A stretch of 64,000 bases of DNA from an uncultured Bacilli bacterium. Its GTDB lineage: Bacteria; Bacillota_I; Bacilli_A; RF39; UBA660. The stretch is from positions 3,921 through 67,920 of the forward strand of contig CAKOTD010000003.1 in assembly GCA_934120015.1 (NCBI GenBank), in the 5' to 3' direction. The notes below the pieces were generated by a model. That model had not been told where the DNA came from. It worked only from the letters and a program-made list of their open reading frames with translations, and did no database searches. The translations under genes and the position numbers were made by a program. Below, piece by piece: positions 20,302-30,515 of this stretch (the first letter of the stretch is position 1; every line of letters starts with the position of its first letter).

Positions 20302-22296
20302 ATGTTAGAATTAAGTGATATTAGAGGACTAGGTATTGCTGGTATAGCTAATCTAAAAAAACTAGGTATTAACAAATTAGAAGATTTAATTACATTTTAT
20401 CCATATAAATATAATTTAATTAAAAGAAGTGATATTAGTAGTTTAAATCAAGATGATAAGATTATTATTGATGGGAGACTAGAAAGTATTCCAAATGTAT
20501 ATTTTATAAATAGAAAAATGGACAAAATGACATTTAGAATTAATACTGGAAAAGTATTAATAAGTGTTGTTATTTTTAATAGAAGGTTTTTAAGAAATAG
20601 ATTATTAGTTAATACAGAAATTACTATAATTGGCAAATATGATAAGATGCATAATACCATAGTAGCAAGTGATATAAGATTTGGACTTCTCGGAAATGAA
20701 GCTAAAATAGAACCTGTGTATCATTTAGTATCCGGTATAACAAATAAAAAAATAGAGAATTATTTGTCACAAGTGTTTAATAGTAATATAAATATCAAGA
20801 ATAATATTCCAATTTATTTTATTCAAAAATATAATTTTCAGGATAAGATAAATACTATTAAATGCTTACATTTCCCAACTAGTTTAGATTTATTAAATAG
20901 AAGTATTGTTCAGCTAAAATATGAAGAATTATTTATATTTATGTTAAAAATGTCATATTTAAAAGATAGAAGAAAAAATCTTAATGGAATTAAAAGAGAT
21001 ATTTCATATAAAGATGTAGGCAAATTTATTAATTCTTTATCATTTAAATTAACAACTGATCAAACTATAGCAATAGAACAGATATACCAAGATATGATAA
21101 GTGATAAGATTATGAATAGATTGTTGCAAGGGGATGTTGGTAGTGGAAAAACTATAGTTTCCTTTTGTGCTATATACATGAATTATTTAAGCAATTATCA
21201 AAGTACTTTAATGGCTCCAACAGAAATACTTGCGGTGCAGCATTATAATAATATAAAAAAGGTATTTGAAAACTATAATATAAAAATAGAACTTATCACT
21301 GGTAAAACAAAGATGCAGGAAAAAAGAAAAATATATGAAGAATTAGAAAGTGGAAGAATTGATGTTTTGATTGGAACCCATGCTCTACTTAATGAAGAAA
21401 TAAGGTATAAAAAGTTAGGCTTAGTTATTACTGATGAGCAACATCGCTTTGGTGTTAATCAAAGGGGAATATTAAAAGATAAAGGAAATAATCCTGATAT
21501 TTTATATATGAGTGCAACACCAATACCAAGGACGTATGCACTTACTCTATATGGTGATATGGATATATCAAATATTAAAACTATGCCCGGTGGTAGAAAG
21601 ATAGTTGAAACATATGTAAAAAAAGAAGAGGAAATAAAAGATGTGTTAATGATGATGTATGGTCAACTAAGGGAAAATCATCAAATATATGTAGTTGCTC
21701 CATTAGTAGAAGAAAATGAAAATAATGATATGGAAAATGTTAATGATTTATATGATAAAATGAATAGAGCCTTTGGTAAAAAATATAACATTGGGATATT
21801 ACATGGAAAGTTAAAAAATAGTGAAAAAGAAGATATTATGAATAGATTTAAAAATAATGAAATTCAAGTATTGGTAGCAACTACTGTTATAGAAGTTGGC
21901 ATAGATGTTGGTAATGCTACTATGATTGTTATATTTGATGCTTATAGGTTCGGATTATCTACTCTTCATCAATTAAGGGGAAGAGTTGGTAGAAATGACT
22001 TACAATCTTATTGTATATTAGTAAGTGATAGAGAAACAAAAAGATTACAAATATTAAGTGAGACTAATGATGGATTTAAGATTAGTGAAGAGGATTTTTT
22101 ATTAAGAGGTAGTGGAGATATTTTTGGTGTAAGGCAAAGTGGAGATATGAATTTTAGATTATCTAATATTAAGAAAGATTATAAGCTACTTTTAAAGGTT
22201 AAAGATGATGTAGAATATTTTATGAATAATGAGGTTAATAAGTTTGAAAATATGTATTTTACAGAGTTGATGAATGCAACTATTAATTTGAATTAA
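20302..22296 (+). CDS. recG: ATP-dependent DNA helicase RecG
   Basis: Wedge/OB N-domain, GDVGSGKT, DEQHRFG, LHQLRGRVGR. Confidence 0.94.
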   Translation: MLELSDIRGLGIAGIANLKKLGINKLEDLITFYPYKYNLIKRSDISSLNQDDKIIIDGRLESIPNVYFINRKMDKMTFRINTGKVLISVVIFNRRFLRNRLLVNTEITIIGKYDKMHNTIVASDIRFGLLGNEAKIEPVYHLVSGITNKKIENYLSQVFNSNINIKNNIPIYFIQKYNFQDKINTIKCLHFPTSLDLLNRSIVQLKYEELFIFMLKMSYLKDRRKNLNGIKRDISYKDVGKFINSLSFKLTTDQTIAIEQIYQDMISDKIMNRLLQGDVGSGKTIVSFCAIYMNYLSNYQSTLMAPTEILAVQHYNNIKKVFENYNIKIELITGKTKMQEKRKIYEELESGRIDVLIGTHALLNEEIRYKKLGLVITDEQHRFGVNQRGILKDKGNNPDILYMSATPIPRTYALTLYGDMDISNIKTMPGGRKIVETYVKKEEEIKDVLMMMYGQLRENHQIYVVAPLVEENENNDMENVNDLYDKMNRAFGKKYNIGILHGKLKNSEKEDIMNRFKNNEIQVLVATTVIEVGIDVGNATMIVIFDAYRFGLSTLHQLRGRVGRNDLQSYCILVSDRETKRLQILSETNDGFKISEEDFLLRGSGDIFGVRQSGDMNFRLSNIKKDYKLLLKVKDDVEYFMNNEVNKFENMYFTELMNATINLN

Positions 22297-22305
22297 AAAT
22301 TGTTC

Positions 22306-22335
22306 TTGACAACAAATAATGTTTCAATATATAAT
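22306..22335 (+). promoter_or_regulatory. Consensus promoter TTGACA-N18-TATAAT directly after the recG stop
   Basis: -35 at 22306-22311 and -10 at 22330-22335. No ORF follows. Confidence 0.6.
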
Positions 22336-22341
22336 TATAAT

Positions 22342-22434
22342 AGCGTGATAGTAGTCACGCAGAAGTACTAACGGCTTAATTGTTAGTACTAAAAACCCCC
22401 TGAAGGACCTCGAAAGAGGTCCATTTTGTTTGTT
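22342..22434 (+). ncRNA. Candidate ~90-nt small RNA with three hairpins (unidentified family), upstream of the Abi_2 HEPN gene
   Basis: Hairpins GCGTGA-TAGTAG-TCACGC (22344-22360) and GTACTAAC-N9-GTTAGTAC (22365-22389), plus the terminator GGACCTC-GAAA-GAGGTCC followed by ATTTTGTTTGTTT (22405-22434). No coding potential. Confidence 0.5.
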
Positions 22435-22556
22435 TGAATTTAAAAAAGTTTAGAGTAGTAACATAAATAATTAAATGAATTTGTATAAGTTTGATAAAAA
22501 TTATTAAGTTTGGTATCTAAGTTGTACTTTTTAATTAAAATACCACAATCAATTGA
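22396..22556 (+). repeat. Direct repeat copy A (~161 bp), starting at the sRNA terminator
   Basis: The first 63 nt are identical to 23991-24053, with progressive divergence after that. Confidence 0.9.
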
Positions 22557-22649
22557 CTTCTGTGGTAAATTATTAAAATTTTATTAAATGTTCATAATAT
22601 ATCGGAATTATTATGATATACTATATGTACTGATAAGAAGGTGAAGTAC

Positions 22650-23657
22650 ATGGATAATAATACTAAAAATTTAATTTTTTTAAGACCTATGATGAATATA
22701 TCAGAAATGGTTCCATATTTAAAACAAAAAAATATAAAATTTGATTTGATTTCTGAAGAAGATGCGGAAACTTATTTAAAATACAATAATAATTATTATA
22801 ATGTAACTGCATATAAACATAATTTTCAAAAATATCCATCTCCTGCTGGAAAATATGAAGGACTATATCAAGATTTAGATTTTGTATATTTAAAGGATAT
22901 GGCAATTATTGATCATAGCACAAGATTATTATTATTTAAAATGATAATTGATATTGAACATTATTTAAAAATAAAAATATTAAATACAATAGAAATGATA
23001 CAAGAAGAGGATGGATATAAAATAGTTAATTTGTATTTGGAAAAAGATTTCAACGATGAAAAGTTTCCTAAAAGAGTTCATAATAGTATTTTTAAAAAGG
23101 TAGGTAATGAGTATTATCAAAAAATATTTTCCAAATATGATGTTGATAAAGATAAAAAGTTAGAAAATATACCAATATGGGAATTCCTTGAAATTATTAC
23201 ATTCGGTGAATTAGTTAATTTTTATGATTTTTACACTAAAGAATATAATTTAGTTGATGAAAATAGAGATGTATATATATTGAGGGATATTGTAAAATTA
23301 AGAAATGCTGTTGCACATAATACATGTGTATTAAGTGAATTAAATAAGAAAGATAATGATTATCCGGCATCATATAAAATTGTGCAATATTTAAAAGATT
23401 GTAATATAGGAAAAGTAACAAGAAATAATAAGCTTAGTAACTCAAGAATTAGGCAAATTACATATACGCTTTATATGTTTAATGAAATAGTAACAAGTGA
23501 TGGTATAAAAGAAAATGTAAATAAAGAAATAAATAAATTATTTTTTGATAGAATAATTTTACACAAAGAATATTATAATAATAATGAACTATTAAAGTCA
23601 ATATATTCATATTTCAAAAATATAATTGAAAAAAATTATGTGAATGTTGATAAATAG
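22650..23657 (+). CDS. Abi_2 (AbiD/AbiF-type) abortive-infection protein with a HEPN Rx4H motif
   Basis: YLKDMAIIDHSTRLLLFKMIIDIEHYLK, ITFGELVNFY, and LRNAVAH (23301-23318). The ATG at 22650 has a better RBS than the GTG at 22641. Confidence 0.8.
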   Translation: MDNNTKNLIFLRPMMNISEMVPYLKQKNIKFDLISEEDAETYLKYNNNYYNVTAYKHNFQKYPSPAGKYEGLYQDLDFVYLKDMAIIDHSTRLLLFKMIIDIEHYLKIKILNTIEMIQEEDGYKIVNLYLEKDFNDEKFPKRVHNSIFKKVGNEYYQKIFSKYDVDKDKKLENIPIWEFLEIITFGELVNFYDFYTKEYNLVDENRDVYILRDIVKLRNAVAHNTCVLSELNKKDNDYPASYKIVQYLKDCNIGKVTRNNKLSNSRIRQITYTLYMFNEIVTSDGIKENVNKEINKLFFDRIILHKEYYNNNELLKSIYSYFKNIIEKNYVNVDK

Positions 23658-23658
23658 T

Positions 23659-23688
23659 TTGACATAAATATATATTTTATGATATATT
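23659..23688 (+). promoter_or_regulatory. Outward-facing promoter TTGACA-N18-(TG-n)-TATATT immediately after the abi stop
   Basis: -35 at 23659-23664 and extended -10 at 23680-23688. It reads into ~870 bp with no convincing ORF. Confidence 0.5.
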
Positions 23689-23694
23689 ATTTAT

Positions 23695-23755
23695 GCAAGA
23701 AAAAAACGTTAAATCGTTTTTGCAAGGGCACTATCTAACGGTGGAGCCCTATTTT
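23695..23755 (+). ncRNA. Candidate short structured transcript, which may instead read through to the terminator at 24000-24029
   Basis: AAAAACG-TTAAAT-CGTTTTT hairpin, then GGGC...GCCC followed by TATTTTTA. Confidence 0.3.
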
Positions 23756-23990
23756 TATGCATAAAATTGAATTTATAGAATAAAAAATTGGAAAAACTTT
23801 TAGATAAATATTTGTAGAACGAGAATCTTAAAAACTTCAGTTTATAAATTTTCTAGATACCAAAACTAGATACTAAATATCAAAAATAAAGTTATTTTTA
23901 TAAACTGTAATAAATTGTGATAAAAGAAAAAGCCTTATTTTGTAATACTTTAACTATTTGTTAAATTGTTACGAACTGATAATAATATTT

Positions 23991-24155
23991 CCCCCTGAAG
24001 GACCTCGAAAGAGGTCCATTTTGTTTGTTTGAATTTAAAAAAGTTTAGAGTAGCAACATAAATAATTAAATAAATAAATTTGTATAAGTTTAATAAAGAT
24101 TACTAATTTTGGCATCTACGTCATGGTCTTTAATTAAAATGACACAATTAATTGA
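23991..24155 (+). repeat. Direct repeat copy B (~165 bp), including a second copy of the terminator hairpin
   Basis: Aligns with 22396-22556. Terminator GGACCTC-GAAA-GAGGTCC at 24000-24017. Confidence 0.9.
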
Positions 24156-24530
24156 AATATTACTATAATGTAGAGCAAGTTTTGTTAAATAGTATAATAG
24201 ATAAATAATAATTGGATTAAAATACATAAATGAAAATGTTGAAAAGGTAAATTTGTCAAGAAAAGTATTTCAATGTTATCATTATCAAAATAGTGAGATG
24301 ATATAATTTTGGCGGAACTCAATTTATGGGAGAAAAATTTGTGTATTTTGATGAATAAAACGATAATTAACAAAATGAATAGTAAGTAAAATTTTACCTC
24401 TATTCAGTGTGGAATTTACTTTTACAAGTGAGTTTAACATTTAATTTTCGACAATATTTGATACTAATTGTTCCAAAATGGAAATTATATGTTATAATAT
24501 ATTTATGTAAAAGACTAGAGGGATAAGTCT

Positions 24531-25046
24531 ATGGAAAAAAGGAAGTCAATAGATATTATTATAGGTTCAAATATGGGTAAGTTGAGAAACAAATTTAATT
24601 TAACCCAAAGGGAAATTTGTTGTGCAGTTGGGGTTAATGCATCGACCTATAAACATTATGAACTTGGTGATAGAATGGTACCTATTAGTGTATTGCAAGA
24701 TTTGGCTAAATTTTATAAAGTATCTACTAATTATTTTTTTGGAAATATGTTAGACTTATTAGATAAAGAATCTAATTATACTTTGACGGTTGTTGATAAT
24801 ATGGATTCCAAACAAATAGATAAGTTTTATAAGCAATTTGAAGAGAAAATACAAATAAGAGTTAGATTTAGAATAAAGAATTTGAGATTAGAAAACAATA
24901 AATCACAAAAAGATATAGCAGAGTATTTAGAAGTTGATTTATCTACTTATAACAAATATGAAAAAGGGCGTAGAAAAATAAATAATGAAGTAATTAAAAA
25001 TTTGGCTGAATATTATGATGTATCAGTAAGTGATATAATTGATTAA
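24531..25046 (+). CDS. XRE-family regulator with two HTH_3 domains (candidate controller of the R-M operon)
   Basis: Two Cro/C1-type HTH units: LTQREICCAVGVNASTYKHYELG and KSQKDIAEYLEVDLSTYNKYEKG. Confidence 0.8.
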   Translation: MEKRKSIDIIIGSNMGKLRNKFNLTQREICCAVGVNASTYKHYELGDRMVPISVLQDLAKFYKVSTNYFFGNMLDLLDKESNYTLTVVDNMDSKQIDKFYKQFEEKIQIRVRFRIKNLRLENNKSQKDIAEYLEVDLSTYNKYEKGRRKINNEVIKNLAEYYDVSVSDIID

Positions 25047-25099
25047 TAATTGACGTTATATCTTGGGTTAATGTCACATCGGCACTAGGAGGAAGTAAT

Positions 25100-26218
25100 A
25101 TGAAAGGATTATCATTATTTGCTAATGTAGGTATTGCAGAGACGTTTTTAGACAAGTTAGGTATTAACATTGTATTAGCAAATGAATTATTAGAAAATAG
25201 ATGTAAATTTTATAAGCATTGTCATCCAGATACTAGAGTTATATGTGGAAATATTACAGATCTAGATACTTATAATATGGTAATTAGTCTTGCAAGAAAA
25301 GAGAATATAGAATTTATAATAGCTACACCGCCATGCCAAGGAATGAGCTTAGCTGGAACGAAAGATCCGCTTGATCCAAGAAATTCATTGGTTAAATACG
25401 CTATAGATGCAATTTTAGATATTAAACCTAAATATGCATTACTTGAAAATGTTGTTCAGCAATTGAAGACACCAATTGAATATGAAAACGAAACTCTTTT
25501 AATTCCTGAATATATAAGAAGAAGATTAGAAAATGATTATTACATAAATAAAAATCAAATAATAAATTCTATGGATTATGGTGTTCCACAGAATAGACAA
25601 AGAGCAATATTCTTATTTTCGAGAAAAGATACAAACATTAAATGGGAATTTCCTAAAAAACATGAAAAAGTTGTTACATTAAAAGAGGCCATAGGTGATT
25701 TACCATCTCTTGATCCTTTAATTAAGGAAGAAAATATGAGACATATTTTCCCCGAATATGAATTAAAAAGACAAAAAGGGCTGCTTGTAAGTAAATATCA
25801 TTATTCAAAGATGGCACCATGGAGGCAAGTTGAGGCTATGATGCATACAGCGACTGGTAAATCAGCTTTTGAAAATGATTTTTATTATCCTAAAAATATA
25901 GATGGAAAAAAGATTAAAGGAGGAGCCTATACATATATGAGAATGGATTGGAATAAGCCTGCACCAACAGTGACGATGTATAATGGCTCAATCTCTTCTT
26001 TTACTAATGTTCATCCAGGAAGAAGACTTAGTGATGGGACGTATAGTGATGCTAGAGTATTATCACTATATGAATTGTTTATCGTAACATCTCTGCCTAA
26101 AGATTGGAATCCACCAGAATGGGCAAGTGAAAATTTTATAAGGCAAGTAATTGGTGAGGGAATTCCACCATTGTTAATAAAGGAAATAGTTAAAACAATT
26201 ATGGAGGAGGTTAAATGA
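25100..26218 (+). CDS. DNA (cytosine-5) methyltransferase, LlaJI M1-like
   Basis: PPCQGMS (motif IV), LLENV (motif VI), QNRQRAIF (motif VIII). Paralogous to the next gene. Confidence 0.88.
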   Translation: MKGLSLFANVGIAETFLDKLGINIVLANELLENRCKFYKHCHPDTRVICGNITDLDTYNMVISLARKENIEFIIATPPCQGMSLAGTKDPLDPRNSLVKYAIDAILDIKPKYALLENVVQQLKTPIEYENETLLIPEYIRRRLENDYYINKNQIINSMDYGVPQNRQRAIFLFSRKDTNIKWEFPKKHEKVVTLKEAIGDLPSLDPLIKEENMRHIFPEYELKRQKGLLVSKYHYSKMAPWRQVEAMMHTATGKSAFENDFYYPKNIDGKKIKGGAYTYMRMDWNKPAPTVTMYNGSISSFTNVHPGRRLSDGTYSDARVLSLYELFIVTSLPKDWNPPEWASENFIRQVIGEGIPPLLIKEIVKTIMEEVK

Positions 26219-27318
26219 TGAAGGCAGTCTCTTTATTTGCAAATGTTGGTATAGCAGAAACATATTTTAAAGATATCAATATAGATGTGATTGTTGCAAA
26301 TGAATTACTTGAAGACAGAGCAAAGTTCTATAAACATTTATATCCCTCTACAAATATGATAGTTGGTGATATAACCAGTAAAAAAATATTTGATGAAGTT
26401 GTTAACTGTACTATTAATGAGAATGTTGATTTACTGATTGCCACTCCGCCGTGTCAAGGTATGAGTGTTGCCGGGAATAGAGATCCATATGATGAAAGGA
26501 ATACTTTAATAAAATATGCAGTTGATTATGCATTAATTATAAAGCCAAGATATATATTTTTTGAAAATGTTATTCAACAGTTGAAAACGCCTATTGAATA
26601 TCAAAATATAATAATGTCTATACCAGAATATATTGAAAAGCGTTTGGGGAAAGAATATTTTATTAATGATGAGAAAGTTATTAATGCAATGGATTATGGG
26701 GTCCCTCAAAATAGAAAAAGAGCAATATTTCTTTTAACAAGAAGGGATCAAAGTAAAAGATGGATATTCCCTGAAAAGGATGGTCACATCATTACATTGA
26801 AAGAAGCAATTGGAAATTTACCATCTCTTAATCCAATAATTAGAGAAAAAGATTTTAGATATAAACTTAATACAAGCAATATTAAATTATTTCATCCATG
26901 GCATAAACCACCAACTCATGCATGGAGACATGTAGAGTGTATGATTCATACTCCTACAGGACACTCTGCATGGGAAAGTAAGGAATATTGTCCTAAAAAA
27001 GTTGATGGGACACCATCGAAAGGATATAATACAACATATCATAGAATGGATTGGGACAAGCCAGCTCCCACTGTAACTAGATATAATGGAGTGATGGGAT
27101 CTCAAATGAATGTTCATCCGGGTAGGAAGCTTAAAGATGGAACATACAGTGATCCAAGAGTTTTAACTATTTATGAATTAATGAAAATTTCTTCATTACC
27201 AGATGATTGGAATCCACCTGAATGGGCAAGTGATAATCTTATAAGATATGTAATTGGTGAAGGTATACCACCGCTAATGGTAAAAAAAATAATGGAACAA
27301 ATTTCAAAGGAGGATTGA
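26215..27318 (+). CDS. DNA (cytosine-5) methyltransferase, LlaJI M2-like
   Basis: PPCQGMS, FFENV, QNRKRAIF. 4-nt overlap with M1. Confidence 0.88.
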   Translation: MMKAVSLFANVGIAETYFKDINIDVIVANELLEDRAKFYKHLYPSTNMIVGDITSKKIFDEVVNCTINENVDLLIATPPCQGMSVAGNRDPYDERNTLIKYAVDYALIIKPRYIFFENVIQQLKTPIEYQNIIMSIPEYIEKRLGKEYFINDEKVINAMDYGVPQNRKRAIFLLTRRDQSKRWIFPEKDGHIITLKEAIGNLPSLNPIIREKDFRYKLNTSNIKLFHPWHKPPTHAWRHVECMIHTPTGHSAWESKEYCPKKVDGTPSKGYNTTYHRMDWDKPAPTVTRYNGVMGSQMNVHPGRKLKDGTYSDPRVLTIYELMKISSLPDDWNPPEWASDNLIRYVIGEGIPPLMVKKIMEQISKED

Positions 27319-27319
27319 A

Positions 27320-29239
27320 ATGGAAAAATGGATTTTTGTAAATAATATTACTAGTCTTGATAAATTATATTGTTTAACTAAAACTATAAAGGAAAATGTA
27401 ATTACCGAAGATAATCATGCAAGAATGTTAATGGATGCACTTAATGAGAATGGTGCAAATAGGACTGAGGCAAATAGTCATCCTATTAATTATGCTTTGT
27501 TTTATAATATGGTTTATTTAGATAACCATATTTATAAACTTACTTCTGATGGAAACAGTTTGTTAGATAATTACAATAAAATTTTGGATGATAAAAAATA
27601 TAAAGCAGAATTTTTCTTTATGCTTTTGATGAAAATAAAATACCCTAATATAGCAGTAGAAACTTCAGATATATATGATATTCATCCATTTTATATAATC
27701 TTTAAATTATTATGTGAAAATAGATTGGATTATGGTATTACAATAGATGAGTTTGAAAACATTTTATCTGTTGCACATAAAGATACTGATTATGAAAAAT
27801 TAGTAAATATAATAGAAAAATATAGAAATGGTGAAAATGTTGAATTAAACTGTGAGAAAATAGCACAAGTTCCAACTGTAGTTGCTGGATGGTGTAATCA
27901 GTTTAATGTCTTGAAAAGGGAAGGTGAAAGAATAGTGTTATCAGATGATTTAAAATCAATGTTACCATTTTTATCAGATGAAAAAAATGTAACTATATTA
28001 CCTTTTAATTATAAATTTATTGAATTTGTTGTTAAGAAATATCTTTTTGATGGACATTCTATGGCAACTATAGAAAATGAATATTATAATGAAACTAATC
28101 GAAGAGGTTTTTTGGTTAAGGATGTGTTGGATTACTATCAAATAAATTTTGAACAAAACAAAGGAATGTATAATAATAAAAGTATAGAATTTGTTTGCTC
28201 ATTATTAGACATACAATCAGATGATAGGTATATAACAATAAGCAATATAATTAAAGGTCTAGAACAAAATGATAATGAATATGAGAAAAAATTTGAAAAT
28301 AATGTTGATGATATAGATAGAGTTACCGGTGGGTATAATAAGATATATTATGGGGTACCGGGTTCAGGAAAAAGTTATCAGGTTGGAGAAGTTTTTAATA
28401 GTGATAATTATTATGTAGAAAGAACTACATTTCATCCGGAATACACAAATAGTGACTTTGTTGGTCAGATTGTTCCAATGGTAAAAAATAATAAAGTAAA
28501 ATATGATTTTCATCCTGGAGCATTTACTAATGCTTTAGTATATGCTTTAAAACATAAGCTTGAAAGAGTTTGTCTAATTATTGAAGAAATTAATAGAGGA
28601 AATTCTTCTGCCATATTTGGTGATATCTTTCAATTGTTAGATAGAGATGAGTCAGGTAAAAGTAAATATGCTATATTTAATGGACCGCTTAGAGATTATC
28701 TTTTAGAAAAGGGAATAAGCGTTTCTGAAATATATATTCCTTCCAATATGTGGATTGTAGCAACTATGAATACTAGTGATCAAAATGTATTTACATTAGA
28801 TACTGCATTTAAAAGAAGATGGAAAATGGAATATATTAGAAATGTATTTGCAGACAATGAGAAGTCAAGAGAATTGAGAAATAAAATAATTCAGGTAAAT
28901 GATAAATATCCAAATGTAACTTGGGAAAAATTTGTTACTAAAATTAATAAACATATAATATCTGATGTATCAGGAATAAATGGTGAGGATAAGCAATTAG
29001 GAATGTATTTTGTATCTGTCGAAGAAATAAATAATCAAAAAGAATTCGCTGAAAAGATATTATCTTACTTATGGGATGATGTTGCAAAATTGAATACCCA
29101 ATATTGGTTTGGAGCTATATCATCTTACGATGAATTGCTCGAGGCATATAATAAGAACTATTTGGATGTGTTTAATTTACTTTTTGAAGACGAAATCAAA
29201 GAAAATGATGCCTATACGATAAGAGCAACAGAGGAATAA
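27320..29239 (+). CDS. McrB-like AAA+ GTPase restriction subunit (LlaJI R1-like) with an N-terminal DNA-binding region
   Basis: GVPGSGKS Walker A, IIEEINRGN, MNTSDQ...LDTAFKRRW (McrB signature). Confidence 0.85.
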   Translation: MEKWIFVNNITSLDKLYCLTKTIKENVITEDNHARMLMDALNENGANRTEANSHPINYALFYNMVYLDNHIYKLTSDGNSLLDNYNKILDDKKYKAEFFFMLLMKIKYPNIAVETSDIYDIHPFYIIFKLLCENRLDYGITIDEFENILSVAHKDTDYEKLVNIIEKYRNGENVELNCEKIAQVPTVVAGWCNQFNVLKREGERIVLSDDLKSMLPFLSDEKNVTILPFNYKFIEFVVKKYLFDGHSMATIENEYYNETNRRGFLVKDVLDYYQINFEQNKGMYNNKSIEFVCSLLDIQSDDRYITISNIIKGLEQNDNEYEKKFENNVDDIDRVTGGYNKIYYGVPGSGKSYQVGEVFNSDNYYVERTTFHPEYTNSDFVGQIVPMVKNNKVKYDFHPGAFTNALVYALKHKLERVCLIIEEINRGNSSAIFGDIFQLLDRDESGKSKYAIFNGPLRDYLLEKGISVSEIYIPSNMWIVATMNTSDQNVFTLDTAFKRRWKMEYIRNVFADNEKSRELRNKIIQVNDKYPNVTWEKFVTKINKHIISDVSGINGEDKQLGMYFVSVEEINNQKEFAEKILSYLWDDVAKLNTQYWFGAISSYDELLEAYNKNYLDVFNLLFEDEIKENDAYTIRATEE

Positions 29240-29240
29240 A

Positions 29241-30515
29241 ATGACATTTTCTGATAGAGTGATTTTTAAAAATAGTTATGAGGAAAACAATTTTGTTGGA
29301 TTAAAATATAAAAAGGACAAAATAAATATATATTTACCAGTTGGTTATGATAAGAGTGAATTTATAACTGAACAGGAATTAAGTTCTACTCAAAAAGTTG
29401 ATTTGTTATTATTATTAAAAACTATTTCATTGGTAAAAAACTCAAATAATGAAATGGATTATTTGGGTGGAAATATTGGTGAGAATATAGAAGTGCCATT
29501 TAATTCTTTTATATGGATGATTAATGATTATTTTAACAATGGTTTATATTATGAAATGGAAAAAAAATATTCTCAGAAAGGTCATGGTAAAATCAATTGG
29601 AAAAGAACTCTTAATTCTGAACATTATTTTTCAGACGATAATGTTATTTATATTAATCCTTATTATGAATCAAGTATTCAAAAAAATAATTTAATTACTG
29701 AACTTAATAATTATTGTTTGCACAAAAGTGTTTATTATATTGGCTTCCTTTTTGGCAATATTATATTACCAGAGTGCCATTTAAAATCATTTAACGTCAA
29801 TAATAATATTAAATATTATTTGGATTTAATTAATAAGGAATTAGTTAGAACATTTAATGATAGAAAGAAACTTCTTCTAATACATATAAAAAAAATATTA
29901 AAAATGAGTTCTGATGATAGTTTTGAAAAGCAACTAACATATGGAACTAGAAGATATGAATATGCATGGGAAAAGATGGTTAATAATACAATTGGTTCAA
30001 AAATAGATATAAGCAAATATTTTCCAAATGCCTATTGGAATATTTTGGGGAAAAAGTTTGAGGACTGTTCTAAATTAAGACCGGATTCATTATATATTGA
30101 TAGAAAAAATAATAAAATATATATAATGGATGCTAAATACTATAAGTATGGTATAACTGGTAATATTTCTGATTTGCCTCATACAGATTCAATTCAAAAA
30201 CAAATAACATATGGAGATCATATTTCAAATAACTATAATTTATATGGTTTTGAGAAAGAAAATATATTTAATACCTTTATTTTACCATTTAATAAAAATC
30301 AACAACCTTTTGTTTCACACGATAGTATCTGTTATATTGGTTTTGCAAATAGTGCATGGCGTGATAAAAAGGAAGTATATAATTATGAAAGAATATCATT
30401 ATTACTTATTGATATGAAGTATATGATAGATTGTTTTTATCAAAAAGAAAAAATTGATTTACAAAATTTAGTTAAGCTAATTGAAAAGGCTAGCAAAGAA
30501 CATATACAAGTTTAA
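29241..30515 (+). CDS. McrC-like / LlaJI R2-type restriction endonuclease subunit
   Basis: Follows the McrB-like gene with a 1-nt gap. PD-(D/E)xK-like IMDAKYYKY. Confidence 0.75.
   Translation: MTFSDRVIFKNSYEENNFVGLKYKKDKINIYLPVGYDKSEFITEQELSSTQKVDLLLLLKTISLVKNSNNEMDYLGGNIGENIEVPFNSFIWMINDYFNNGLYYEMEKKYSQKGHGKINWKRTLNSEHYFSDDNVIYINPYYESSIQKNNLITELNNYCLHKSVYYIGFLFGNIILPECHLKSFNVNNNIKYYLDLINKELVRTFNDRKKLLLIHIKKILKMSSDDSFEKQLTYGTRRYEYAWEKMVNNTIGSKIDISKYFPNAYWNILGKKFEDCSKLRPDSLYIDRKNNKIYIMDAKYYKYGITGNISDLPHTDSIQKQITYGDHISNNYNLYGFEKENIFNTFILPFNKNQQPFVSHDSICYIGFANSAWRDKKEVYNYERISLLLIDMKYMIDCFYQKEKIDLQNLVKLIEKASKEHIQV

Follow-up and report, generated by a model that had tools for sequence, protein, structure and literature searches.

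A structured RNA gene directly downstream of an Abi_2 HEPN gene in an uncultured Bacilli bacterium: a candidate type III-like RNA antitoxin

The stretch analysed here, 64 kb of contig CAKOTD010000003.1 from an uncultured Bacilli bacterium (called the window; positions are those of the window), carries after recG a gene, abi, that codes for a HEPN protein of the Abi_2 family and raises the question of what would hold such a protein in check. AbiF toxins are neutralised by an adjacent non-coding RNA (ncRNA) (PMC12373285; PMC12737573), and an earlier note, made from the window sequence alone, had proposed that abi is an AbiF-type HEPN gene with a structured ncRNA of this sort next to it. The part of that proposal that stands concerns the RNA immediately downstream of abi, RNA2, which is strictly co-conserved with the gene; the upstream RNA, RNA1, is linked to recG, and the known abiF motif (RF03085) is absent. 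It is very likely that RNA2 is a genuine structured RNA that is functionally tied to abi. We further propose, with a probability of about 0.6, that RNA2 would act as an RNA antitoxin that binds the HEPN dimer, in a type III-like manner and in a new layout. This reading is preferred because of the analogy with AbiF and its ncRNA, because abi has no protein partner, and because RNA2 appears to have a strong and separate promoter.

The abi protein and the RNA gene that follows it

The features needed for the argument are the following.

22614..22649, plus strand: predicted abi promoter and 5' untranslated region (UTR), with the extended -10 element TGATATACT at 22614-22622 and a UTR of about 21 nt
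22650..23657, plus strand: abi, coding for a 335-aa HEPN protein of the Abi_2/AbiD-F family
23658-23757, plus strand: conserved downstream element, starting at the abi stop codon
23659..23688, plus strand: predicted RNA2 promoter, with the -35 box TTGACA directly after the abi stop codon, TG at 23680-23681 and the -10 box TATATT at 23683-23688
23658..23699, plus strand: P0, a 12-bp hairpin (arms 23658-23670/23688-23699) that spans the RNA2 promoter and has the -10 box in its loop
23695..23757, plus strand: RNA2, a predicted promoter-derived small RNA (sRNA) of about 63 nt, the proposed antitoxin or partner
Parts of RNA2, plus strand: 5' GCAAG; stem P1 at 23702-23708/23715-23721; linker GCAAG at 23722-23726; stem P2 at 23726-23735/23740-23749; UAUUUUU at 23750-23756

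The identification of an Abi_2 gene at 22650-23657 was confirmed by Pfam, in which the protein matched PF07751 (Abi_2) with 82.4 bits and an E value of 6.7e-23 (cut-off 25.6), and by PADLOC, which called it AbiD (E 2.2e-17). The earlier note had also been right in taking LRNAVAH for the HEPN motif R-[NHD]-x3-H. This motif is present as R218-N219-A-V-A-H223 (bases 23301-23318), its residues R218, N219, and H223 are invariant across 29-30 homologues down to 21% identity (alignments A3 and A4), and they align with RNQCAH of AbiFCd and RNSCCH of PbAbiF. An AlphaFold 2 model of the protein (pLDDT 90.8, pTM 0.89), built on an alignment that left out the phiC2 protein, was searched with Foldseek against the Protein Data Bank (PDB). 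The sole significant match was 8vz6_A, which is PbAbiF bound to ncRNA (E 2.9e-4, probability 1.00, TM-scores 0.56/0.61), and the next best match had an E value of 1.6. As a single sequence the protein had no match in the PDB at E ≤ 1, and a profile built from its homologues matched 8vz6_A with an E value of 3e-9. The identity to AbiFCd is 25%.

A protein search returned close homologues of the abi protein in the hundreds, and an exhaustive search gave 1241 Abi_2 representatives (E ≤ 0.001). A genome scan gave 80 loci with 68-98% identity, all from uncultured gut Bacilli and "Tenericutes" metagenome-assembled genomes; loci retrieved for comparison are given L-numbers below. No close relative was found in the viral contigs of IMG/VR. 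In most of 73 loci an extended -10 element (TGnTATAAT-like) lies about 30 nt ahead of the abi start codon and, therefore, there is no space for a 5' ncRNA between the two. In the window and its closest relatives a short leader stem at 22629-22652 (GUACU/AGUAC) is found around the Shine-Dalgarno sequence GAAGGUG, with G.U variants in L004 and L007, and it recalls the translational control reported for lactococcal AbiD1. In L011, L012, L013, and L026 the promoter upstream of abi is followed by a short GC hairpin with a U-run (GGGCGUGUUUUUGAUGCGUCCUAUUUUUUU) and then by the Shine-Dalgarno sequence. This has the look of a terminator-type leader, and RNA2 is also present downstream of abi in these four loci.

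The sequence that follows abi is conserved along with it. The 116 bp that begin at the abi stop codon were matched by blastn right after abi in 77 of the 80 loci, and alignments between loci end in nearly every case at 23756, which is the end of the RNA2 U-run. Therefore, the heritable unit is abi together with about 100 bp downstream of it. A covariance model of the RNA2 element, R1, scored 110 bits in the window, and wherever the 3' end of a locus is complete the sequence after abi scored 70-117 bits; in L006 and L040, which are without RNA2, the 3' end of abi is truncated or lies at a contig end. Elsewhere in the window R1 matched nothing at a significant level, nor did it match the loci that have only recG. 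The contigs of eleven distant homologues were sampled, as were public phage and plasmid records, and an RNA2-like element was found after abi in 8 of the 11 sampled homologues (29-60% identity, with a legible 3' flank), including two phage records and one plasmid. R1 matches lie at the abi stop codon in L088 (60% identity), L086 (42%), L090 (37%), L097 (32%), L180 (31%), L182 (30%), L094 (29%), the Evtepia phage L096 (29.5%), and, with 22 bits, the Kurthia plasmid L185 (32%), and the scores of the distant positives range from 17.6 to 61 bits. RNA2 was recognised by eye in L093 and in plasmids of Campylobacter fetus and Ligilactobacillus salivarius. In L092 the promoter is visible before the contig ends and in L181 the contig ends just past the stop codon. 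Two tandem copies of RNA2, each with its own promoter, are present in L068, L086, and L090, and additional copies are present in L079 and L012.

Anatomy and covariation of RNA2

The earlier note had placed a second promoter at 23659-23688 and had it reading into about 870 bp. The promoter stands, with 11 of 12 consensus positions matched and a TG ahead of the -10 box, and what it is predicted to read is about 63 nt and not 870 bp. In a MAFFT alignment of 52 sequences TTGAC, TG, and T-A-n3-T are invariant with a spacing of 17-18 nt, and this signature follows the pattern expected for recognition by sigma-A. It had also been supposed that the upstream and downstream transcripts can end at the same terminator sequence, carried by a direct repeat. 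This had to be given up for RNA2, which has its own conserved hairpin and U-run ending at 23756; conservation across the 52 loci drops abruptly past the UAUUUUU.

RNAalifold and pair counts gave P1 as an A-rich/U-rich stem and P2 as a G-rich stem followed by the U-run. In the MAFFT alignment 94.9% of the cells of P0, P1, and P2 pair, compared with 38-60% when the partners are slid by 1-3 columns, and changes on both sides occur in 11 pairs, compared with 3-7 in the slid controls. The covariation score of the region is 0.257 against at most 0.089 in controls, and when distant members were added 19 of the 29 pairs were compensatory and the score was 0.342 against at most 0.112. The window sequence folds identically on its own, including P0, with z = -5.2. 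Frequent G.U pairs indicate that the region is transcribed from the plus strand, and an RNA from the minus strand or a DNA palindrome was rejected for P0 and P2 because many of these G.U pairs would become A.C. The Rfam search that the earlier note had suggested turned up no credible family at E ≤ 10 for the RNA2 region, 23640-23775.

An open reading frame lies over part of this sequence, and the reading in which the stretch after abi encodes a 23-aa peptide (MQEKNVKSFLQGHYLTVEPYFYA) that acts as a protein antitoxin was considered. The ATG at 23693 opens a frame of 23 codons and is kept in most loci. However, the length of the frame varies from 6 to 29 codons across the 52 loci, with a stop at codon 10 in 13 of them, and changes of 1-2 nt in loop length shift it. 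There is no Shine-Dalgarno sequence, and the substitutions track base-pairing and not codons. The small-peptide reading was rejected because the 23-codon frame is not conserved, and it is the least credible of the alternatives weighed here.

In P0 the opening bases of the predicted sRNA are paired with the -35 box, and pairs 13-37, 14-36, and 15-35 of alignment A1, which belong to P0, have 18-19 double-sided changes each. P0 is available only to transcripts that have run on from abi and, since it covaries strongly, transcripts that enter from abi must exist. The promoter, for its part, is kept even in distant relatives that lack evident P0 pairing. Because P0 covaries and because the promoter is kept in this way, we conclude that both predicted forms are likely to be made, one an RNA of about 63 nt that starts from the promoter (23695-23757) and the other read through from abi, with P0 folded.

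The read-through form leads to the main rival of the antitoxin reading, which is that RNA2 is merely a cis-acting 3' UTR whose terminator and stabilising or processing hairpins set the level of abi mRNA. It would have no antitoxin role and the toxin would be controlled otherwise, for example, by a stem around the Shine-Dalgarno sequence as reported for AbiD1; such a small stem does enclose the Shine-Dalgarno sequence in the window and its closest relatives. The covariation of P0, and hence the read-through from abi, agrees with this explanation, as does the fact that P2 with its U-run is the only terminator following abi. In addition, RsaL of Staphylococcus aureus has been described as processed from the 3' UTR of SA0355 (PMC3386247). 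However, if RNA2 were only a 3' UTR it would not be clear why TTGAC/TG/TAnnnT is kept at the correct spacing in distant clades without P0 pairing, why the tandem second copies and the orphan copies of RNA2 each retain their own promoter, or why the single-stranded GCAAG tracts and the sequence of P1 are kept far past the needs of termination. We regard a purely cis-acting role as unlikely, and as the alternative to be taken most seriously.

RNA2 could also be a base-pairing sRNA, type I-like or acting in trans, that represses the translation of abi or targets phage or host mRNAs and does not bind the protein. It is short, promoter-driven, ended by a terminator, and has conserved single-stranded tracts, all of which would suit such an RNA. 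On the other hand, predicted duplexes between RNA2 and the abi initiation region do not surpass those formed with shuffled RNA (mean z of -0.08 over 50 loci, with z < -2 in 1 locus), so that antisense pairing with the abi start region was rejected, and since RNA2 lies on the abi strand and after abi it is not cis-antisense. A base-pairing role is, in our judgement, distinctly less probable than a cis-acting one.

Comparison with AbiF, type III, and S. aureus systems

If RNA2 is the partner of abi, is it a known kind of partner? RF03085 had no match at E ≤ 10 in 22200-24600 or in 23640-23775 and was absent from the 31 scanned related loci that have homologues of the window protein. As controls, RF03085 was found in phiC2, with 37.6 bits and 75 nt before abiF, and in 10 of 10 PbAbiF loci (80 were recovered and 10 scanned), with 38-58.5 bits just before the start codon. 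R1, in turn, had no match in the 10 PbAbiF loci nor next to abiF of phiC2, in which its best score was 19.6 bits about 4.5 kb away from abiF. Since the family and the fold match, yet RF03085 is absent and the abi leader is short, the abi protein shares its family and the PbAbiF fold while the RNA partner and the position of the RNA are different.

The systems described under AbiF/AbiFr (PbAbiF in 8VZ6, and AbiFCd-RCd22) have, like the window locus, an Abi_2 HEPN protein with RNxxxH and the same fold, one protein gene without a protein antitoxin, and a short structured RNA that is strictly linked to the gene. Their RNA is upstream of the gene, as a 5' leader with a premature terminator, whereas RNA2 is downstream of abi and has its own consensus promoter. 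In addition, RNA2 is unrelated in sequence and structure to the 37-nt abiF hairpin, and the abi protein is about 35-45 aa longer at its C terminus. Two abiF motifs are carried by RCd22 of Clostridioides difficile, in a 5' leader that ends at a terminator, and the regions upstream of the lactococcal AbiD/F genes are conserved (PMC12373285, PMC13064643); the main text of Weinberg 2017 makes no mention of abiF. The co-inherited structured ncRNA of AbiF systems thus has its counterpart here in RNA2, which follows abi over 29-98% protein identity and covaries. The upstream ncRNA leader of the abiF class has none, the abi leader being about 21 nt and the upstream sRNA being that of recG. The locus falls outside the abiF-motif class as described, and the comparison suggests a second, undescribed kind of RNA partner for the Abi_2 toxin family.

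Classical type III toxin-antitoxin systems (ToxIN, AbiQ/antiQ, and TenpIN) resemble what is proposed here in that an endoribonuclease toxin has a small structured RNA as its neighbour and in their role in abortive infection, and the two tandem RNA copies in some abi relatives add to the likeness. Their antitoxins are tandem repeats upstream of the toxin gene, with which they share a promoter, with a terminator in between, and the toxin cuts them into single units, whereas the window has a single downstream RNA gene with its own predicted promoter and no ToxIN-like array. The toxin fold is also different, HEPN here and ToxN/Kid-like there.

An sRNA in the same position as RNA2 is found in S. 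aureus.

L098:2459-2554, contig OR844992: Sau-5971/RsaL/srn_0880 (RF02397), 117 bits, with an Abi_2 open reading frame at 1474-2448

The S. aureus Abi_2 gene (SA0355) is 34% identical to abi, sau-5971 begins 10 nt past its stop codon, and the -35/-10 elements of the sRNA overlap the end of the Abi_2 coding sequence, so that Sau-5971/RsaL, like RNA2, lies after an Abi_2 gene with an overlapping promoter. It is highly expressed and has been detected experimentally (PMC3386247, PMC5826253) and, as RsaL/srn_0880, is listed among the bona fide sRNAs of S. aureus with Northern validation (PMC5826253). Both RNAs have UAUGCAAGAAAAA, then an A-rich/U-rich hairpin and a terminator. They differ in that Sau-5971 belongs to a separate Rfam family, has another first hairpin, and has a far longer terminator stem. 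RF02397 had no match in the window at E ≤ 10, and R1 had no significant plus-strand match after the S. aureus Abi_2 gene. No paper was found that ties Sau-5971/RsaL to an Abi gene; in the literature found it is treated as an orphan sRNA or as a 3' UTR product.

Several points weigh against RNA2 as an antitoxin and were set against the evidence above. The covariation of P0 reflects transcription from upstream, so RNA2 could be purely a cis-acting 3' UTR. RNA2 is without detectable similarity to the abiF motif, which is the part of the RNA that contacts PbAbiF and AbiFCd. In the AbiF literature found, the upstream abiF motif is the sole described RNA partner (Zilberzwige-Tal et al. 2025, Cell, was outside this scope, and downstream ncRNAs are not excluded there). 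L179, from a high-GC organism, has no recognisable RNA2 after its abi homologue, and on Bacillus anthracis pXO1 (L183) the promoter-driven RNA after the Abi gene has a different shape. After the Abi family gene of pXO1 come TTGACT-N17-TATATT and then a hairpin-rich stretch with a terminator (L183:1640-1840); this RNA, being in the same position as RNA2, may be another variant of a partner RNA.

The upstream RNA and the insertion site

The second RNA of the locus and the sequences around the abi-RNA2 module involve the following features.

20302..22296, plus strand: recG (Pfam RecG_wedge, DEAD, Helicase_C, RecG_dom3_C), which anchors the conserved neighbourhood
22306..22335, plus strand: predicted RNA1 promoter, TTGACA-N18-TATAAT, 12/12
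22342..22434, plus strand: RNA1, with hairpin 1 at 22343-22360 and hairpin 2 at 22364-22390
22393-22404, plus strand: C-rich single-stranded tract of RNA1, AACCCCCUGAAG
22405-22422 and U-run, plus strand: RNA1 terminator
22396..22556, plus strand: direct repeat copy 1 (attL-like), with the sRNA 3' end from CCCCCUGAAGG, the terminator and about 120 bp of cassette leader
23845..23990, plus strand: what is left of an integrative-element arm; CTAGATAC occurs in it twice, at 23853 and 23866, and copy 2 follows directly
23991..24155, plus strand: direct repeat copy 2 (attR-like), with the displaced sRNA 3' end, a terminator at 24000-24017 and a diverged leader
24531..30515, plus strand: LlaJI-type restriction-modification system, with a double-HTH controller, two C5 methyltransferases, AAA_5 (McrB-like), and RE_LlaJI

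What the earlier note had seen of RNA1 itself was found as described. The promoter at 22306-22335 matches the consensus at 12 of 12 positions, and TTGAC and TAxxxT are conserved in 10 homologous loci. The non-coding stretch, put at about 90 nt in the note and about 95 nt here, folds into three hairpins with a minimum free energy of -36.3 kcal/mol (z = -6.5, 0 of 200 shuffles as good), the last of which is the terminator, at 22405-22422 with a U-run. In an alignment of 10 sequences 7 of 14 pairs, in two hairpins, are compensatory. Homologues of recG precede the sRNA in L001, L006, L047, and L081-L085. RNA1 or a homologue of it lies directly after recG in the window, L001, L006, L047, L081, L082, L083, and L085. 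All of these have a promoter of their own, two hairpins that covary, and a conserved CAACCAAAACCCCCUGAAG tract; the terminator is variable. No credible Rfam family was found for 22200-24600 at E ≤ 10, and the whole window gave just a tRNA at the gathering thresholds.

Could RNA1 be the partner of abi? In the version of the earlier note it is the upstream RNA (22342-22434), alone or with the downstream transcript, that neutralises Abi. RNA1 is adjacent to abi, promoter-driven, and well folded, and the known AbiF ncRNAs do sit upstream of their gene (PMC12373285). However, RNA1 follows recG without abi nearby in L081, L083, and L085. Among the 80 abi loci blastn found it only in L001, L002, and L006, it is absent from more than 70 of them, and the 3-6 loci in which it can be counted all have it at the same recG site. 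The conservation and covariation that had been looked for in an RNA beside homologous abi genes were found for the downstream RNA, with 19 of 29 pairs compensatory. Moreover, the mobile segment of high identity begins at 22392 within RNA1, so the 5' two-thirds of RNA1 belong to the host, and abi has a predicted promoter of its own about 30 nt before its start codon. RNA1 as the partner of abi was rejected on its distribution, and we hold this version to be very improbable, only slightly less so than the peptide. By its sequence distribution, RNA1 is a conserved sRNA that belongs to recG and not to abi.

RNA1 is an unannotated sRNA family of uncultured gut Bacilli whose 3' end is used as an insertion site. 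In other loci the region upstream of recG holds a further conserved element, about 100 nt long, which reads as a small RNA of the minus strand and has a TTGACA promoter, GGUACCAAUUCG...GCUAGUAUCACACUAGCCAACCCC, and a terminator with UCAGGGGG (L002:330-470; L081:3272-3410; L082:4355-4490; L083:857-1000; L085:4308-4450); it was not found in the window.

A direct repeat of about 160 bp (22396-22556 and 23991-24155) had been reported, and it holds: the first 63 nt of the two copies are identical and the rest is about 82% identical with a 4-nt indel. A 33-mer of the repeat occurs exactly twice in the window compared with 0 expected by chance, and neither a third copy nor an integrase was found downstream in the window. 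The alternative offered in the earlier note, that the repeats mark the insertion of a cassette at the 3' end of an sRNA gene, is supported by the comparison. Genomes in which recG is only about 54% identical have abi genes that are 95-98% identical, and the high-identity homology to L003 and L006 (recG, where present, about 54%) begins at 22392-22393, inside the sRNA. Homology with L001 and L002 ends at about 24022-24033, just past the second terminator. In L085 an open reading frame for a phage integrase (Phage_integrase, E 1.8e-24) abuts the sRNA, and between the sRNA and this tyrosine integrase lies the motif CTAGATACC...CTAGATACC, which is also present in the window at 23853 and 23866. L083 has recG and the sRNA followed by unrelated sequence, with no abi and no R1 match, and is thus an unoccupied site. 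Segments homologous to the arm remnant (145 bp in the window) precede displaced copies of the CCCCCUGA-terminator in L003, L004, and L070. A recG search for the window's own species gave five loci only, with 56-59% identity. The make-up of the repeats, the L085 integrase, and the homology breaks thus fit att-like duplications of the sRNA 3' end at an integration hotspot.

The site resembles the islands at the 3' ends of tRNA, tmRNA, and sRNA genes in that the repeats are made of the 3' end of an RNA gene, a complete RNA gene is restored at the left junction, the cargo consists of variable defence genes, and the same site has an integrase in L085 and is empty in L083. It differs from them in three respects. 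The 1.6-kb unit and the whole island of the window (22396-30515) are without an integrase, so that mobilisation in trans or decay must be assumed; the repeat is 160 bp long with diverged sequence beyond the identical core of 63 nt; and in L001 three copies of the repeat bound two cassettes.

Some further observations on these insertions are given here. In L001 (at 3755, 5331, and 7525), and also in L003, L004, and L070, small cassettes follow one another in an array-like manner, with copies of the sRNA 3' end as their borders. Among the genes that they carry are abi, one for a 393-aa reverse transcriptase, one for an AAA ATPase, NT5C, and unknown genes, with no integrase within the cassettes. 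Direct repeats, of 30-325 bp, also enclose the abi-RNA2 module at genomic sites unrelated to this one (L027, L060, and 16 other loci). Those of L027 (3342-3589/5133-5380, 248 bp, 99% identity) and L060 (2033-2356/3570-3889, 325 bp, 92% identity) are duplications of the 3' end of the upstream protein gene with its terminator. In the window the abi cassette is followed by the complete LlaJI-type system at 24531-30515, and an RE_LlaJI fragment is found at the same site in L085.

A model for abi and RNA2 and its meaning for the family

Putting RNA2 forward as an antitoxin, we propose the following model. The abi gene would encode an RNase with the AbiF fold and the HEPN motif and would be transcribed, with about 21 nt of leader, from a promoter of its own that looks weak, while the near-consensus promoter right after its stop codon would drive the 63-nt RNA2. 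The RNA2 sequence would double as the 3' UTR of read-through transcripts from abi, in which P0 would fold over the internal promoter. RNA2 would bind the Abi dimer and restrain the RNase as a type III-like RNA antitoxin, and its strong separate promoter would keep it in excess over the toxin. In phage infection RNA2 would be lost or displaced and the RNase thereby freed. The abi-RNA2 module would have arrived by horizontal transfer into the 3' end of the recG-linked sRNA gene, leaving the 160-bp repeats. Of all this, the anatomy, the co-conservation and covariation, the family and fold of the protein, and the footprint of the insertion are established, and transcription, toxicity, binding of the RNA to the protein, and neutralisation are inferred.

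AbiF-type toxins are among the commonest defence genes. More tentatively than for the window itself, and with somewhat less than even confidence in the whole, we suggest that a large clade of HEPN proteins with the Abi_2/AbiF fold may use a second class of RNA antitoxin that has no relation to the abiF motif, is encoded on the 3' side of the toxin gene with its own promoter, and is sometimes present in tandem. This clade would take in gut Bacilli, Clostridia phages, Kurthia and Campylobacter plasmids, the near-universal SA0355 of S. aureus, and possibly pXO1. If this is the case, then many "single-gene" Abi_2 annotations would be two-part systems whose RNA half has been missed, and abi-type genes cloned without the flank on their 3' side would prove toxic or mislead. 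The promoter-in-hairpin arrangement of P0 would couple read-through of the toxin gene to the form of RNA that is made. Apart from this, the recG-linked sRNA is an insertion hotspot in uncultured gut Bacilli, at which small defence cassettes gather between duplicates of the sRNA 3' end.

AbiF-type toxins are reported, in papers that cite the proposal, as proposed ancestors of Cas13. The layout seen here, an effector gene and then one or more RNA genes, would be present in the lineage proposed to have given rise to Cas13, and an effector followed by a promoter-driven RNA bears on how a toxin-RNA pair may become a guide-RNA system. The interest of the locus lies in a second, unannotated class of RNA partner for a very common defence toxin and in its link to an orphan sRNA of S. 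aureus, and if the proposal is true the abundant RsaL/Sau-5971 would gain a testable function.

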